Positions 5,019 through 44,276 of a stretch of DNA of 64,000 nt are shown in pieces. Origin of the DNA: an uncultured Candidatus Saccharibacteria bacterium (lineage in GTDB: Bacteria > Patescibacteriota > Minisyncoccia > UBA6257 > GWB1-50-10); NCBI GenBank assembly GCA_964357525.1, contig CAYHLH010000002.1, positions 5,287-69,286 of the forward strand, given 5' to 3'. Within the stretch, counting starts at the first letter, position 1; every line of letters begins with the position of its first letter. The position numbers and the translations under genes were made by a program. The notes beneath the pieces are model-generated. The model was not told the DNA's origin. It was given only the letters and a program-made list of their open reading frames with translations, and made no database searches.

Positions 5019-5090
5019 GGCCCCATCGTCTAGTGGTTAGGACAACGCTCTTTCAAGGCGTAAACACGGGTCCGATTCCCGTTGGGGCTG
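5019..5090 (+). tRNA. tRNA-Glu (TTC)
   Basis: Cloverleaf: acceptor GGCCCCA/TGGGGCT, anticodon stem ACGCT/GGCGT with loop CTTTCAA, T-arm ACGGGTCCGATTCCCGT. Confidence 0.8.
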
Positions 5091-5250
5091 CAAACACAAA
5101 AATCTCCTAATCAAGGAGATTTTTGTGTTTGCTTTCCTAGGAATCGGACCGTTTTACCCCCGTGTCGGATTGAATTGAAAACCGAGGGTTTTCAAAGTCA
5201 GGGGGTCGGGGGCAAAACATGTGTTTATGTCCGATTCCCGTTGGGGCTGC
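5091..5250 (+). repeat. tRNA-Glu 3'-attached element: terminator-like hairpin, inverted copy of the T-arm, G-rich GGGGGTCGGGG motif, direct repeat of the last 22 nt of tRNA-Glu
   Basis: Hairpin ACACAAAAATCTCC-TAATCA-AGGAGATTTTTGTGT (5094-5128). GGAATCGGACC at 5140-5150 is the reverse complement of the T-loop GGTCCGATTCC. GTCCGATTCCCGTTGGGGCTGC at 5229-5250 duplicates 5069-5090. Confidence 0.55.
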
Positions 5251-5277
5251 TAAAAAAAAGTGGTATAATTACGGCAT

Positions 5278-5877
5278 ATGACCCGTCACCGGAAGAGGGG
5301 CACACACCGCGACGAGCGCGCTCCGGAAGCGCAAAGGGTTCCCGCGCATCCGGCGCACCACGTCCAGCCTCAAAAGCCGCATGAAGCGCACCGCCTCCCC
5401 GCAAGGCCGGCGCCCGGGCGGAAGATCTCCTGGAGGGCGGCGGAATTCCATTATTTTGAGAAGGATTATCTGTGGTATGTCTGGGCGGTTTTCACAGGGG
5501 TCGTGCTTCTCGCATTCGCGCTTTGGCAGAGGAATTTCTTCTTTGCGGTGTTCGTCGTCATTGCGACGGTGCTCTTCGTCGAGTTCGGCAAGCGCAGGCC
5601 GAGGACACTGGATTATGAGCTTAACGAGAAGGAGGTTCTGATAGACGGGAGGATGTCGATCCCCTACAAATCCATCGAGAGTTTCCACGTGAGGAAGCGA
5701 CTGGGGCTTCTCGACGAGGTCGTCTTCAAACGCGCCACGCGGGTGAATCCGTTCATCCACCTGCCCATCGACGAGGAACTTGCCGTACGGGCGCGGGAGT
5801 TCCTCCTCGAATTCCTGCCCGAAGACGAGCACGAACAGACCATCGTGGAGATCATCGCGGAGCGCATCGGATTCTGA
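5278..5877 (+). CDS. Hypothetical membrane protein with basic N-terminus
   Basis: 199-aa ORF with two TM helices. ATG 8 nt after GTGGTATAAT. A long antisense ORF on the other strand is judged spurious. Confidence 0.45.
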   Translation: MTRHRKRGTHRDERAPEAQRVPAHPAHHVQPQKPHEAHRLPARPAPGRKISWRAAEFHYFEKDYLWYVWAVFTGVVLLAFALWQRNFFFAVFVVIATVLFVEFGKRRPRTLDYELNEKEVLIDGRMSIPYKSIESFHVRKRLGLLDEVVFKRATRVNPFIHLPIDEELAVRAREFLLEFLPEDEHEQTIVEIIAERIGF

Positions 5878-8846: not shown

Positions 8847-9714
8847 CCTTGTGGCGATGGCGCTCGCGGCGACGCTCGTCGTTTCGTTCGCGGTTCCCGC
8901 GGTTTCGTTTGCGGAAGAGAACGAGGGGAAGAACCGTCCGGACACGGAATCATTGAGGAAAAATATCCTTGAGCGGGTGAGGCAGATCTTGCCGTTCAAG
9001 GCGAGGTTTGCCACCTCGACCCGTCCCCGCCCCGAGCTTGCCGACGACAGCGACATGAAAACGGGAAAGTTCGCCTGCTCCCGACTCCCCCAGCTTTTCG
9101 GGGAAGTCCAGGTGAAGACGGCGGAACGCAGGAGCGAGCTTCTGAAGAGTCAGGAAGAGGCCCGCAGGAAGGTTCAGAGACGCAAGGAAGCGGTGCGTGA
9201 GAAGGTAAGCGAACGCAGGGACGAATGGAGCGATAATTTCAAGGAACGATTCGCGGCGCTCGAGCGGAGGGCGGCGACGACGGAGCAGCGTGCAGCCGTC
9301 GCGGCGTTCCGCGCGTCGGTCGAATCCGCGCTCGCGGCGCGCCGTTCGGCGATAGACGCGGCGACCGCGGCGTTCGCTTCCTCGTCGGCGGCTTCCGCCG
9401 GGGAACGCGAGGCGAGGATCGCGGAGATCACCGAAACGTACCGCGTTTCGGTCGCATCCGCGGCGGAGAAAGCGAAGAATGACTGCGCGGCCGATCCGAG
9501 GAATGTAGTAGCCGTCCGCGAGGCATATATGGCTTCTGTGAAGGCCGCGAAGGAAAGATTCGACGCCGACCGCAAGGTGCTCGAGGAGCTGAAAACGGAC
9601 GTGACTGATGCGGCAAAAACATACAAGGATGCGCTCCGTAAAGCGGACGCCGATTTCAAAGCGGCCGTCGAGGCGGCGTCAAAAACCCTGAAAGCCGCGT
9701 TTCCCGGCGCGTGA
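8827..9714 (+). CDS. Secreted Ala/Arg-rich coiled-coil protein, third gene of the ECF operon
   Basis: Signal peptide MEKRRYNLVAMALAATLVVSFAVPAVSFA, then a low-complexity coiled-coil. Followed by the terminator hairpin at 9737-9772. Confidence 0.5.
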   Translation: MEKRRYNLVAMALAATLVVSFAVPAVSFAEENEGKNRPDTESLRKNILERVRQILPFKARFATSTRPRPELADDSDMKTGKFACSRLPQLFGEVQVKTAERRSELLKSQEEARRKVQRRKEAVREKVSERRDEWSDNFKERFAALERRAATTEQRAAVAAFRASVESALAARRSAIDAATAAFASSSAASAGEREARIAEITETYRVSVASAAEKAKNDCAADPRNVVAVREAYMASVKAAKERFDADRKVLEELKTDVTDAAKTYKDALRKADADFKAAVEAASKTLKAAFPGA

Positions 9715-10003: not shown

Positions 10004-10034
10004 CTCAAAAAACCGCCGAAGCGGTTTTTTGTTT

Positions 10035-10216
10035 TGTGCGGGTTAGGAGAAATCTCACACGCTGGGAAACCTCCTTCGATCCCGAGATTTCAGGACCGAG
10101 GGGCACGGTTTTCCCACAGCCTTCCTCCACGGGGAACCGGTCGCGGTTCCCCGACCCCCTCCTCTGTTCGATTCTCCACAGAACAAAAATACCCCGATTG
10201 GGGCATTTTTGTTCTG
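10035..10216 (-). repeat. tRNA-Gly 3'-attached element (tRNA sense is minus strand): hairpin, inverted T-arm copy, GGGGGTCGGGG motif, GGAACCG-CGAC-CGGTTCC palindrome, direct repeat of the tRNA 3' end
   Basis: TGTGCGGGTTAGGAGAA at 10035-10051 duplicates 10215-10231. GTTCGATTCTCC at 10166-10177 is in the opposite orientation to the tRNA T-loop. Hairpin CAGAACAAAAATACCCC-GATT-GGGGCATTTTTGTTCTG at 10178-10216. Confidence 0.55.
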
Positions 10217-10287
10217 TGCGGGTTAGGAGAATCGAACTCCTGTCTCAACCTTGGCAAGGTCGTGTTCTACCACTAAACCAAACCCGC
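10217..10287 (-). tRNA. tRNA-Gly (GCC)
   Basis: Reverse complement GCGGGTTTGGTTTAGTGGTAGAACACGACCTTGCCAAGGTTG...GAGTTCGATTCTCCTAACCCGCA. Anticodon loop TTGCCAA. Confidence 0.8.
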
Positions 10288-40822: not shown

Positions 40823-41515
40823 ATGCCGGTTTTTAAATCCGTTAATAAAGACTTCTTTAAGAAATGGTGTCCGGAAATGGCCTACGTGCTCGGATTTTTC
40901 GCGGCTGACGGTTATATTACTGTGAACAAGCGCGGTGGACAGTTTTTAGGAATTCAGATTACCGATAAGGATCTTCTTGAAAATATTAAAAAAGCGCTGA
41001 GTTCGGAGCATAAGATAGGGAAACGTGCTCGTGGAGGAAATGAACAACCAACATATCGTCTTCAAGTTGGGAGCATTGAGATGTGCGACGATTTACGCCG
41101 TCTCGGTTTTTGCGAGAAAAAAGTAAGACGTTTAACGATGCCAAATATTCCCAGAAAATATCTTTCTGATTTTGTTCGCGGTTATTTTGATGGCGATGGA
41201 AATGTATGGGTGGGATTTGTGAATAAAAAGAGAAAAAATCCGGTGTTAACCATTGTAACGATGTTCACTTCTTGTTCGACTGAATTTTTACGCATTTTGT
41301 GGGGAAAGCTTCGAGTGGAGGGGGTTTCCGGCGGTTCTATCTATAATGCAAAGGGTAATTATTCTCGTTTACAATTTGGAGCGAGAGATTCTTTGAAATT
41401 ACAAGAATTTATGTATAATCAGAATTGTCTTAAAAATGGACTGTTTCTCGAGAGAAAGAAAAAAATTTTCAAGAGATACAATGCGTTAAAAAAGAGACAT
41501 GCGGTCGTGGTGTAG
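40823..41515 (+). CDS. Free-standing LAGLIDADG homing endonuclease (two-motif, single-chain type)
   Basis: Two LAGLIDADG motifs: LGFFAADGYI and RGYFDGDGNV. AT-rich. Three TATAAT boxes upstream. The 3' end overlaps tRNA-Asp by 15 nt. Confidence 0.75.
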   Translation: MPVFKSVNKDFFKKWCPEMAYVLGFFAADGYITVNKRGGQFLGIQITDKDLLENIKKALSSEHKIGKRARGGNEQPTYRLQVGSIEMCDDLRRLGFCEKKVRRLTMPNIPRKYLSDFVRGYFDGDGNVWVGFVNKKRKNPVLTIVTMFTSCSTEFLRILWGKLRVEGVSGGSIYNAKGNYSRLQFGARDSLKLQEFMYNQNCLKNGLFLERKKKIFKRYNALKKRHAVVV

Positions 41516-41575
41516 CCTGGTTAACATACCTCCCTGTCACGGAGGGGATCGTGGGTTCAAATCCCATCGGCCGCG
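41501..41575 (+). tRNA. tRNA-Asp (GTC)
   Basis: Acceptor GCGGTCG/CGGCCGC, anticodon stem CCTCC/GGAGG with loop CTGTCAC, T-arm GTGGGTTCAAATCCCAT. Confidence 0.8.
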
Positions 41576-41605
41576 CAAAAAAAAACGCCAAATGGCGTTT
41601 TTTGT
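41575..41605. terminator. Bidirectional terminator (CAAAAAAAAACGCC-AAAT-GGCGTTTTTTG)
   Basis: GC stem flanked by A and T tracts, directly after tRNA-Asp. Confidence 0.55.
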
Positions 41606-41606
41606 T

Positions 41607-42053
41607 CTAATAGCGTTTCACTAGGACGATGCCGTATTTCGGGATTTTTATAAAATCGGAAAGTTTCTCGATGGTAACTACGCCGTTGGATTGTTTGGCG
41701 TGGATTATTTCATCAGAGCCGAGATACATTACCATGTGGCCTATACATACTTCTTTGTCGGGAAAAAGTTCGTCGTTGTAATGTCCCTGCGGTCCCCGCA
41801 TGAACAATAGGTCGCCGGCTTCGAGGTTTGAGTGATTGGACGCGGATTCCACTTCTTTGCTTTGCGGGTCGGCGGCCTGAAGTATTGTGCTCCGCGGAAG
41901 CGTGAATCCTATTTGTTTATACAGATATAGTACGAATGAGGAACAATCGAACTCGGCCGGCGCCTTGTCCGGCGAGGCTCCGTAAACGTAGGGAACTCCC
42001 ACAAGATTTTTTGCGATGGATGTTACTTTTTCTTTTTGTTCTTTGGTAAGCAT
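41607..42053 (-). CDS. NlpC/P60 family cysteine peptidase
   Basis: Catalytic Cys in FDCSSFVLYLY and His in IGHMVMYLG. Start set at MLTKEQKEK; the track N-terminal extension would run into the tRNA-Met-associated repeat. Confidence 0.65.
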   Translation of the reverse strand: MLTKEQKEKVTSIAKNLVGVPYVYGASPDKAPAEFDCSSFVLYLYKQIGFTLPRSTILQAADPQSKEVESASNHSNLEAGDLLFMRGPQGHYNDELFPDKEVCIGHMVMYLGSDEIIHAKQSNGVVTIEKLSDFIKIPKYGIVLVKRY

Positions 42054-42060
42054 ATTATTC

Positions 42061-42226
42061 TGTGCCGACGGGAGGAAGCGGACAATCCACCTTTGGCGGA
42101 TTTTGGAACCCAGCGGTTCCAAGGCCTCCGCATTGGGAAAACTCCCGTTTCCCCACCGCCCCTTCCCGTCCGATTCCAGAGCGGCAAACACAAATGTTTT
42201 GAAAAACTCAAATCATTTGTATTTTG
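42061..42226 (-). repeat. tRNA-Met 3'-attached element (tRNA sense is minus): A/T hairpin, inverted T-loop copy, G-rich GGGGCGGTGGGG, GGAACC-GCTG-GGTTCC palindrome, direct repeat of the tRNA 3' end
   Basis: TGTGCCGACGGGAGGAAGCGGAC (42061-42083) versus the tRNA 3' end TGTGCCGACGGGAGGAATCGGAC (42225-42247). GTCCGATTCC at 42168-42177 is in inverted orientation. Confidence 0.55.
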
Positions 42227-42299
42227 TGCCGACGGGAGGAATCGGACCTCCGACCTAAGCGTTATGAGTGCTTCGCTCTAACCACTGAGCTACGCCGGC
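42227..42299 (-). tRNA. tRNA-Met (CAT) (elongator Met or Ile2/lysidine type not distinguishable)
   Basis: Reverse complement GCCGGCGTAGCTCAGTGGTTAGAGCGAAGCACTCATAACGCTT...GGAGGTCCGATTCCTCCCGTCGGCA. Anticodon loop CTCATAA. Confidence 0.75.
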
Positions 42300-44192: not shown

Positions 44193-44264
44193 TGCGGGGA
44201 GGAGTAACGGTTGCTCGTCAGGCTCATAACCTGAAGGTAGTGGGTCCAATTCCCACCCCCGCAA
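44193..44264 (+). tRNA. tRNA with CAT anticodon (Met or Ile2); 5' boundary uncertain by 1 nt
   Basis: Anticodon stem TCAGG/CCTGA with loop CTCATAA, T-arm GTGGGTCCAATTCCCAC, acceptor TGCGGGG/CCCCGCA. Confidence 0.65.
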
Positions 44265-44276
44265 CACAGAACGAAC

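Follow-up and report, generated by a model that had tools for sequence, protein, structure and literature searches.

Small structured elements that copy the tail of the adjacent tRNA: a putative non-autonomous mobile family in the 3′ trailers of Patescibacteria tRNA genes

Integrative elements that carry a tyrosine integrase and target the T-loop sublocation of transfer RNA (tRNA) genes regenerate the tRNA and can form tandem arrays. The CTX phage attP(+) at dif and the integron attC at attI are integrated as a folded single strand, and MITEs (miniature inverted-repeat transposable elements) and their likes are small, non-coding and dependent on an enzyme acting in trans. Here an element is described that shares something with each of these systems. 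It was found in a stretch of 64,000 nucleotides (the window) from an uncultured Candidatus Saccharibacteria bacterium (GenBank assembly GCA_964357525.1, contig CAYHLH010000002.1, positions 5,287 to 69,286 of the forward strand), where three copies lie directly 3′ of intact genes for tRNA-Glu, tRNA-Gly and tRNA-Met, each with an inverted copy of its own T-arm and a direct repeat of its own 3′ end. On balance, the element is best explained as a member of a family of small, non-autonomous, tRNA-tail-specific mobile elements residing in the 3′ trailers of Patescibacteria tRNA genes, since it combines insertion polymorphism, multi-copy cores and a conserved hairpin architecture.

The layout common to the three copies runs, in tRNA sense, from the tRNA through a hairpin (H1), the inverted T-arm copy and a structured core to the direct repeat; this module had been recognized in the initial annotation, and all its main features were recovered where they had been placed. 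The direct repeat extends from the T-loop through the tRNA 3′ end and, in the Gly and Met copies, 6–10 nt into the trailer. The insertions amount to 140–165 bp, the direct repeats are separated by 138–160 bp of non-coding DNA, and the cores (78–114 nt) are GC-rich and form multiple hairpins. Copy 1 follows the intact tRNA-Glu(UUC) at 5019–5091 on the plus strand (ARAGORN; 61.9 bits with the Rfam tRNA model), in which a repeat search delimits the proximal target segment, from G53 of the T-loop to the tRNA 3′ end, at 5070–5091. H1 (5090–5132), located by an inverted-repeat search, has perfect 19-nt arms flanked by an A-run and a T-run, and the 11-nt inverted copy GGAATCGGACC (5140–5150) is 100% complementary both to the tRNA (5069–5079) and to the distal repeat (5229–5238). 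In single-sequence folds the core (5151–5228) contains a long-range stem, 5151–5162 with 5207–5218, and a hairpin at 5175–5195; the G-rich motif GGGGGTCGGGGG occupies 5201–5212. The distal repeat (5229–5250) is identical to 5070–5091 over 22 of 22 positions, with 90% identity when the comparison is extended to 31 nt.

Copies 2 and 3 lie on the minus strand. The host of copy 2 is the intact tRNA-Gly(GCC) at 10216–10287 (ARAGORN and the Rfam tRNA model); it is followed by H1 at 10177–10218 (19-nt arms, 95%), the 12-nt inverted copy GGAGAATCGAAC at 10166–10177 (100%) and a core at 10052–10165 with predicted hairpins at 10130–10153 and 10064–10115, which has the motifs GGGGGTCGGGG and CCCCGTGGAGGAAGGC in common with relatives. 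Its distal repeat (10026–10051) matches 10206–10231 over 26 nt at 96% and thus includes 10 nt of trailer past the tRNA end, and a second terminator (10006–10031) comes after it. Copy 3 adjoins the intact tRNA-Met(CAU) at 42226–42299, called by the same two methods. H1 spans 42190–42220, the 10-nt inverted copy GGAATCGGAC lies at 42168–42177 and is again 100% complementary, and the core (42084–42167) folds into hairpins at 42135–42154, 42103–42122 and 42084–42102 (z = −4.3). The distal repeat (42056–42083) matches 42220–42247 over 28 nt with 2 mismatches and abuts the start codon of an NlpC/P60 gene (42053–42051). The GGAACC-n4-GGTTCC palindromes noted earlier in the Gly and Met copies turned out to be real core hairpins (10130–10153 and 42103–42122). 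The claim of a shared G-rich motif stands for the Glu and Gly copies, which both hold GGGGGTCGGGG together with the relatives, but in the Met copy only a looser version is present.

By eye H1 resembles a bidirectional terminator; a simple terminator scan did not call it because the bases of its T-run are paired to those of the A-run. With its repeats and conserved core, the element goes well beyond an intrinsic terminator. The exact words of the repeats and inverted copies occur nowhere else in the 64 kb, and the other seven of the ten window tRNAs have neither direct nor inverted repeat, as had been noted. None of the ten encodes CCA (ARAGORN, Rfam tRNA model). When the three cores are aligned as a whole, the mean column identity is 64%, which makes them weakly alignable, so that the idea of one family does not follow from this alignment; their relatedness is clear because they share modules with copies in other genomes. 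The source of the DNA is indicated by an 8.2-kb contig of European Nucleotide Archive assembly ERZ1292625 (Hain_H41_01um), from Hainich groundwater, that is identical to the window. All three regions are base-for-base identical in 2–3 independently assembled contigs of replicate samples (contigs compared: L001, L188, L189, L191 and L192), therefore an assembly artefact, against which the initial annotation had cautioned, is excluded.

That the element was inserted is best seen at tRNA-Met. A relative contig (L181), whose NlpC/P60 protein is 74% identical to that of the window, carries a tRNA-Met identical to the window's over all 74 nt, and there the tRNA is followed by AAAATAT and then by the NlpC/P60 start codon. 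In the window, AAAATAC follows the tRNA; next are 136 nt that make up the hairpin, the inverted copy and the core, and GTCCGcTTCCTCCCGTCGGCACAgAATAAT, the second copy, precedes the same start codon. The L181 site is thus empty and the window holds a 164-bp insertion with a target duplication of about 28 bp that starts at G53; since the empty site is without the hairpin, H1 of the Met copy belongs to the inserted DNA. The earlier description of elements fused to tRNA 3′ ends has to be modified in this respect: the duplication starts inside the T-loop (G53–G57) and the inserted DNA includes the hairpin. For tRNA-Glu, three relatives could be compared, at 74% (L021, NCBI GCA_041643275.1), 67% (L022) and 58% (L023) identity. 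The distal repeat of the Glu copy, together with the TGgTATAAT that follows it, is orthologous to the 3′ half of the native tRNA-Glu and its promoter in L021; therefore the distal copy is the original one and the DNA between the two copies was inserted. At the same site L023 has a terminator only and L022 a homologous element. Elements occur on three of the ten window tRNAs, on none of about eight tRNAs seen in a 74% relative and on none of six in a 63% relative. An empty allele of the Met site from the same species was looked up by exact protein, and none is on record. Among named genomes the window's tyrosyl-tRNA synthetase (TyrRS) is nearest to those of Paceibacterota and Yanofskybacteria, at no more than 54% identity; these relatives show no synteny with the window and have hardly any tRNAs there.

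The family extends well beyond the window. The L022 element at tRNA-Glu shares with the window Glu copy a 62-nt block of 89% identity, with the Gly copy CCCCGTGGAGGAAGGC and with the Met copy GGCCTTGGAA..TTCCAA. A metagenome scan with the pattern GTTCGATTC-N45-75-GGAGAATCGAAC matched at least 119 loci. In at least 55 loci, one arm belongs to an intact tRNA as its T-arm and the second lies outside any tRNA, and in most of these a distal repeat of the tRNA tail follows 120–240 nt downstream. The search for copies and empty sites in relatives that had been proposed earlier thus yielded elements behind at least 55 tRNAs, besides the Met empty site. Further tRNAs on the retrieved loci, for which the pattern had not selected, also carry cognate inverted and direct copies, e.g., Tyr, Pro, Arg (GACTCGAAC/CGAGTCC), Gln (GATTTGAACC/CAAATCC), Leu(cag) and Trp, and their T-loops differ (TTCGAAT, TTCGAGT, TTCAAAT), each with its own cognate arms. 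These cases confirm independently that element and tRNA are matched, and together with the uniqueness of the words in 64 kb they bear out the earlier view that the match is not due to chance. Homologous elements were found in many unrelated datasets, and the carriers that can be placed taxonomically are Patescibacteria; for the best-defined subfamily this placement comes from the names of close homologues of an adjacent CCA-adding enzyme. Elements of the family measure about 110–165 bp, and the duplication, 22–31 bp in the window, reaches about 60–70 bp elsewhere (L099, L104). The cores of different families are not all homologous; that of the L066 type is only 16 nt long.

Within single genomes the element appears to have multiplied at different tRNAs. 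The cores behind Gly(gcc) and Arg(tcg) of L142 are identical over about 30 nt and about 95% identical in their first halves, with different arms, and those behind Pro and Arg of L065 are closely similar over their first halves. Tandem units are present in L067, L104, L066/L151 and L135/L148, with a copy number that varies (two tandem units in L148, one in L135). The tRNA tail is usually copied better by the distal repeat than by the inverted copy, and at L114, L065 and L153 a long degenerate palindrome is centred on the hairpin.

The cores fold in a conserved manner. Thirteen elements of one subfamily form a three-way junction, in which the inverted copy and the distal repeat pair to form the helix P1, and one hairpin is enclosed by each of the helices P2 and P3; compensatory changes are seen in 28 of 35 base pairs (RNAalifold). 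A covariance model built from this alignment gave 25 strong matches. Over 24 distinct sequences 93% of the alignment cells are paired, as compared with 66% in shuffled and 32–49% in slid controls, and double changes occur in 33 of the 35 pairs. Over the roughly 450 kb of loci, all strong matches are located directly 3′ of a tRNA, on the tRNA strand, and none elsewhere, with the linkage uncheckable for two matches at contig ends. The subfamily to which the window copies belong follows this plan too, with P1 and three hairpins, the G-rich GGGGGTCGGGG, GTGGAGGAA and a GTGA before the distal repeat; its MAFFT alignment was poor and gave no automatic consensus fold, and single-sequence folds compared hairpin by hairpin show stems that vary among copies yet stay paired. 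The inverted copy has two possible partners, the true T-arm and the distal repeat, and it is the pairing with the latter that the family keeps as a helix: in L159 the similarity of the arms to the T-arm is wholly lost and P1 still pairs. Judged from the sequence, antisense pairing with the T-arm in the precursor transcript would also be possible. As for the strand, mismatches are of the G-U type in 20 cases and of the A-C type in 12; the difference is not significant, neither strand is favoured, and the counts fit a fold at the DNA level at least as well as an RNA fold. The fold z-scores of the window copies disagree on the strand. Upstream of the inverted copy, 8 of 60 elements hold a complement of the acceptor 3′ strand at 8–9 of 9 positions, and the 5% threshold from shuffles is passed by 10 of 60, with about 3 expected by chance; sometimes a conserved hairpin at the D-arm position stands between this complement and the inverted copy (L153, L087, L161, L077). 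The three window copies are without it.

Set against the described systems, the element resembles tRNA integrative elements in that the tRNA is regenerated and tandem arrays occur, and the direct repeat of the tRNA 3′ part is present at both ends, as it is for integrase-borne islands. Unlike them, it has no integrase or any other gene and is only 110–165 bp long, it holds an internal inverted T-arm copy and a covarying multi-helix core, and near-identical cores are found at different tRNAs with arms cognate to each. With CTX attP(+) at XerCD-dif and integron attC × attI it has in common the order of direct hybrid site, loop, inverted copy, cargo and direct hybrid site, as well as a stem that rebuilds the target duplex and is kept as structure rather than as sequence. 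The differences here are that the target is the T-arm and 3′ end of a tRNA and not dif or attI, that a structured core of about 100 nt makes up the whole cargo, and that the arms change with the tRNA. MITEs, repetitive extragenic palindromes and bacterial interspersed mosaic elements (REP/BIME), as well as palindromes derived from the insertion sequences (IS) IS200/IS605, are likewise small, non-coding and multi-copy, with compensated hairpins, and are intergenic beside terminators, with an enzyme needed in trans. However, the terminal repeats of the element copy the target and are not element-specific, the duplication is long and variable instead of a short, fixed target-site duplication, and the element sits strictly 3′ of tRNA genes in strict orientation; no parent IS was found. 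The inverted copy and the distal repeat do pair as terminal inverted repeats do, but their sequence follows the host tRNA. The element works like a MITE or a hairpin-attachment-site element, and it is nevertheless not filed as a member of either family, since its arms derive from the target, its duplication is long and variable, and neither a parent element nor a link to a recombinase was found.

Two RNA systems invite comparison as well. The tRNA-like domain of transfer-messenger RNA (tmRNA), the external transcribed spacer RNA 3′ETS-leuZ and mascRNA-type mimics resemble the element by the same-strand position in a tRNA 3′ trailer, and the closing helix of some subfamilies mimics acceptor plus T-stem with a hairpin at the D-arm position. 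The element differs from them by the lack of a T-loop or anticodon arm, of an acceptor mimic in the window copies, and by its presence/absence polymorphism between relatives. Non-canonical introns and split tRNAs of archaea share the break point in the T-loop region and related sequence at several tRNAs, but here the host is bacterial and the upstream tRNA is complete and contiguous, with no splicing needed.

An enzyme or a longer form of the element was searched for in several ways. No integrase, resolvase, transposase or reverse transcriptase was detected with Pfam among the flanking genes and the 30 largest open reading frames (ORFs) of the window, and no autonomous relative with a transposase occurs in the roughly 450 kb of loci. 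Loci without a nearby distal repeat were searched for one farther away, such as a gene-carrying version would have, and none was found. Viral contigs gave no match to AGGGGGTCGGGGGCAAAA, matches to the 16-mer CCCCGTGGAGGAAGGC at chance level and a single chance match to the architecture pattern. At the gathering score, Rfam 15 recognized only tRNAs (and one rRNA) in the window and in 18 element-carrying loci; permissive searches added nothing but weak, sub-threshold microRNA-like matches, owing to the long hairpin. No description of such elements was found in the full-text literature, whose coverage was incomplete, so that an earlier description is possible.

Several other identities were considered and rejected. 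A second tRNA is called neither by ARAGORN nor by the Rfam tRNA model, only the segment from T-loop to 3′ end being repeated, and the second copy has no 5′ half, D-arm or anticodon arm, which dismisses a tRNA pseudogene or a tandem tRNA duplication. As the element holds a segment complementary to its target, the bridge RNA or seekRNA of IS110/IS1111 elements was considered; in these, a DEDD recombinase gene adjoins the RNA and the junctions show a core repeat of 2 nt, and here no ORF lies in or beside the element and the junction repeats are 22–31 nt long. Hammerhead, hepatitis delta virus-like, hairpin and twister ribozymes were dismissed in the absence of core motifs and Rfam matches. Neither IS91-type GTTC targeting, nor casposon- or CRISPR-repeat-like duplication, nor target-primed reverse transcription, nor homing-endonuclease repair fits all the features, and none of these routes has a supporting gene, save a LAGLIDADG ORF beside another tRNA.

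The insert leaves the tRNA intact because it sits between two direct copies of the target segment, which starts in the T-loop (G53–G57), takes in the tRNA 3′ end and reaches the first bases of the trailer, and the old 3′ end with the native downstream DNA is moved about 160 bp away. From the empty site at Met, the orthology at Glu and the many members elsewhere, which agree with the earlier proposal of a tiny tRNA-linked element with attL/attR-like duplications, we infer that the element is, or recently was, mobile. An enzyme encoded elsewhere would recognize it as a folded single strand and move it in that form, a route proposed because the order of direct copy, hairpin loop, inverted copy, cargo and direct copy matches such integration; by analogy with attP(+) and attC, a single-strand intermediate may be supposed, the stem of which would rebuild the target duplex and which would recombine with the target and then be replicated. 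The arms may then be re-matched to each new tRNA, presumably by copying of the target or by hairpin-templated correction. The element is probably also transcribed as a structured tRNA trailer, since it shares the strand of the tRNA and has a terminator at its end in most cases, and it would give its tRNA that terminator.

Several points weigh against this account. Since the empty-site genomes are only 58–74% identical at the protein level, precise loss of the element is formally possible. Conservative recombination needs a cognate tRNA 3′ end, which is hard to bring together with near-identical cores at different tRNAs; a re-copying of the arms, as we infer it, would reconcile the two. The duplication length, varying from 22–31 bp to about 60–70 bp, is unlike that of fixed-stagger transposases. 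No free, circular or gene-carrying form was seen and no enzyme was identified in the material searched, the retrieval of relatives is skewed by the search pattern, and the conserved unpaired nucleotides, with possible tandem G-A pairs beside P1, resemble a functional RNA more than a site of recombination.

The latter point leads to the strongest rival, which we hold possible but clearly less probable, namely that the element is a functional non-coding RNA in the tRNA trailer, a three- or four-way junction whose closing helix was copied from the neighbouring T-stem and, in some subfamilies, from the acceptor stem as well, so as to mimic a tRNA minihelix. Such an RNA could be cut by RNase P and RNase Z, receive CCA, act as a decoy or regulate the maturation of its tRNA, and the duplication would then tell how the gene arose and not of ongoing mobility. 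Very strong covariation and the conserved unpaired nucleotides speak for this RNA, as do the invariable position on the tRNA strand directly downstream of the tRNA, the terminator of its own that usually follows, the acceptor-plus-T-stem topology suggested by the acceptor complement in 8 of 60 elements, some with the D-arm-position hairpin, and the retention of P1 in L159 despite the lost T-arm similarity. Furthermore, in the window Met and Gly copies, L022 and L074, the true T-loop is matched better by the inverted copy than by the distal repeat. On the other hand, G-U mismatches do not clearly exceed A-C mismatches (20 against 12), the window copies have no acceptor-stem mimic, the cores of the families are not all homologous (16 nt in the L066 type), and the sparse occurrence (three of the ten tRNAs in the window, none of about eight and none of six in the 74% and 63% relatives) indicates that the element is dispensable. 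The mobile-element and trailer-RNA readings are not mutually exclusive.

Much less probable are collapsed remnants of integrase-borne islands or prophages, in which attL and attR would remain after deletion of the interior, an option raised in the initial annotation that is not supported. The direct repeat does extend from the T-loop through the tRNA 3′ end, a block that is reportedly the classical identity block of T-loop-type integrase sites, and other insertions, too, have their hot spots at the tRNA genes of these genomes. Deletions of that kind are nevertheless difficult to reconcile with the uniform sizes and layout at three loci here and dozens elsewhere, with a core fold that is conserved and covarying, and with near-identical cores at different tRNAs of one genome; no longer, gene-bearing version was found, the scanned ORFs contain no integrase or other recombinase nearby, and the viral contigs hold no related sequence.

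Hardly more credible, and if anything slightly less so, is a self-contained RNA device that reads tRNAs, with the inverted copy as internal guide, the distal repeat as replacement 3′ end and a core that catalyses or recruits. It might be a small trans-splicing or 3′-end-replacing ribozyme that repairs damaged tRNAs, or else a guide RNA that programs an enzyme to insert DNA at T-arm-matched tRNA genes; geometry, covariation and conserved unpaired bases are what would suggest it. A local replication or repair event, in which the template is switched at the T-arm hairpin and at the palindromic terminator so as to yield a direct–inverted–direct triplication of the tail, is more improbable still. 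It would account for the order of the three tail copies and for the long degenerate palindromes at L114, L065 and L153, and the match between inverted copy and tRNA could be a result of quasi-palindrome correction. However, template switching predicts no foreign core, or else the reverse complement of the tRNA body, and the core observed belongs to a family that spans tRNAs and genomes; besides, the Met insert brings a hairpin that the empty site lacks. Given the shared cores, template switching appears very unlikely as the sole cause, although it may contribute to the re-matching of arms. Chance similarity or an assembly artefact at tRNA repeats can practically be set aside: only the prior that tRNA-derived repeats confuse assemblers supports it, against identical sequence in independent assemblies, exact 22-nt repeats and 10–12-nt inverted copies confined to these loci in 64 kb, and homologous elements in many unrelated datasets.

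Although the genomes of Patescibacteria are tiny and streamlined, a structured passenger of 110–165 bp that copies the tRNA tail accompanies many of their tRNA genes. If the element is mobile, it would constitute a minimal insertion system specific for tRNAs, with target-matching arms built anew at every site, and would point to a new enzyme or to folded-strand recombination other than that of dif and integrons; in the case of a trailer RNA, there would be a large undescribed class of tRNA-linked structured RNAs. On either reading, it accounts for the 'partial tRNA' repeats of these genomes, misleads gene callers and offers a testable handle on the genome dynamics of uncultivated bacteria. How gene callers are misled can be seen at the Met copy, where the public call for NlpC/P60 (41607–42191, minus strand) comprises 194 aa with a GTG start inside the element; the relatives and the empty site indicate a protein of 148 aa with an ATG at 42053–42051.

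Some further observations concern the host tRNAs and the loci retrieved. Position 55 of the T-loop is C, instead of the near-universal U, in tRNA-Glu (5019–5091), tRNA-Met (42226–42299), another tRNA-Met (44193–44265) and the tRNA-Phe of L182; these T-loops read UCCGAUU or UCCAAUU, and the inverted copies of the Glu and Met elements have the matching G. After the Glu distal repeat an extended −10-like TGgTATAAT is located at 5261–5269, with an ATG at 5278, and the repeat itself provides TTGGGG at −35 distance; the same arrangement is found behind the native tRNA-Glu end of L021, and a simple promoter scan made no call for this promoter-like sequence (5240–5269). A CCA-adding enzyme gene stands directly beside an element-carrying Gly/Arg/Pro tRNA cluster in L142 (8382–9869) and L093 (1584–3062). 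In L185 (about 9108–9118) and L187 (about 220–230), a lone inverted T-arm copy, GGGAATTGAA, follows the terminator 3′ of a second tRNA-Met; neither a recognizable core nor a distal repeat accompanies it before the next tRNA, and it may be a decayed element. About 65 of the at least 119 pattern matches came from human gut and are not the element. They contain, as in L070 (565–666) and about 60 similar contigs, a 96-nt unit of two inverted, convergent tRNA-like 3′ ends with GGAGAATCGAAC around a terminator; ARAGORN in tRNA mode calls neither end, and the unit probably consists of convergent tRNA-like genes.

Other oddities were noticed at tRNA loci of the window and its relatives. In L021 (1727–1929), the native tRNA-Glu is split in the anticodon loop by an insert of about 130 bp, which contains a different, complete tRNA-Glu (1798–1873) between the arms of a 13-nt inverted repeat, CCCCTCACCTTTT/AAAAGGTGAGGGG; the former 3′ half is decayed, and the locus looks like a gene replaced by an inserted tRNA cassette. 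The same contig has, at about 2571–2661, a direct repeat of the 5′ end of tRNA-Arg (GCCCTCGTCGTTCAA) some 75 nt upstream of the intact tRNA-Arg (2662–2734), with an inverted ACGACGAG just before the tRNA, i.e., a mirror-image arrangement on the 5′ side, as well as an 89-aa GIY-YIG ORF (E = 2e-12) that ends 3 nt before tRNA-Gly. In the window, the LAGLIDADG ORF (40823–41515, plus strand; Pfam E = 6.5e-12) ends inside the start of tRNA-Asp (41501–41576, plus strand), which is inverted relative to L181 and about 75% identical to its counterpart there; this suggests a nuclease-linked tRNA replacement. Finally, the window tRNA-Gly (10216–10287) lies on the same strand as TyrRS and that of L021 (3349–3420) and L024 (8225–8296), about 80% identical, on the opposite one, so tRNA-Gly with its element was inverted or replaced in the window lineage.

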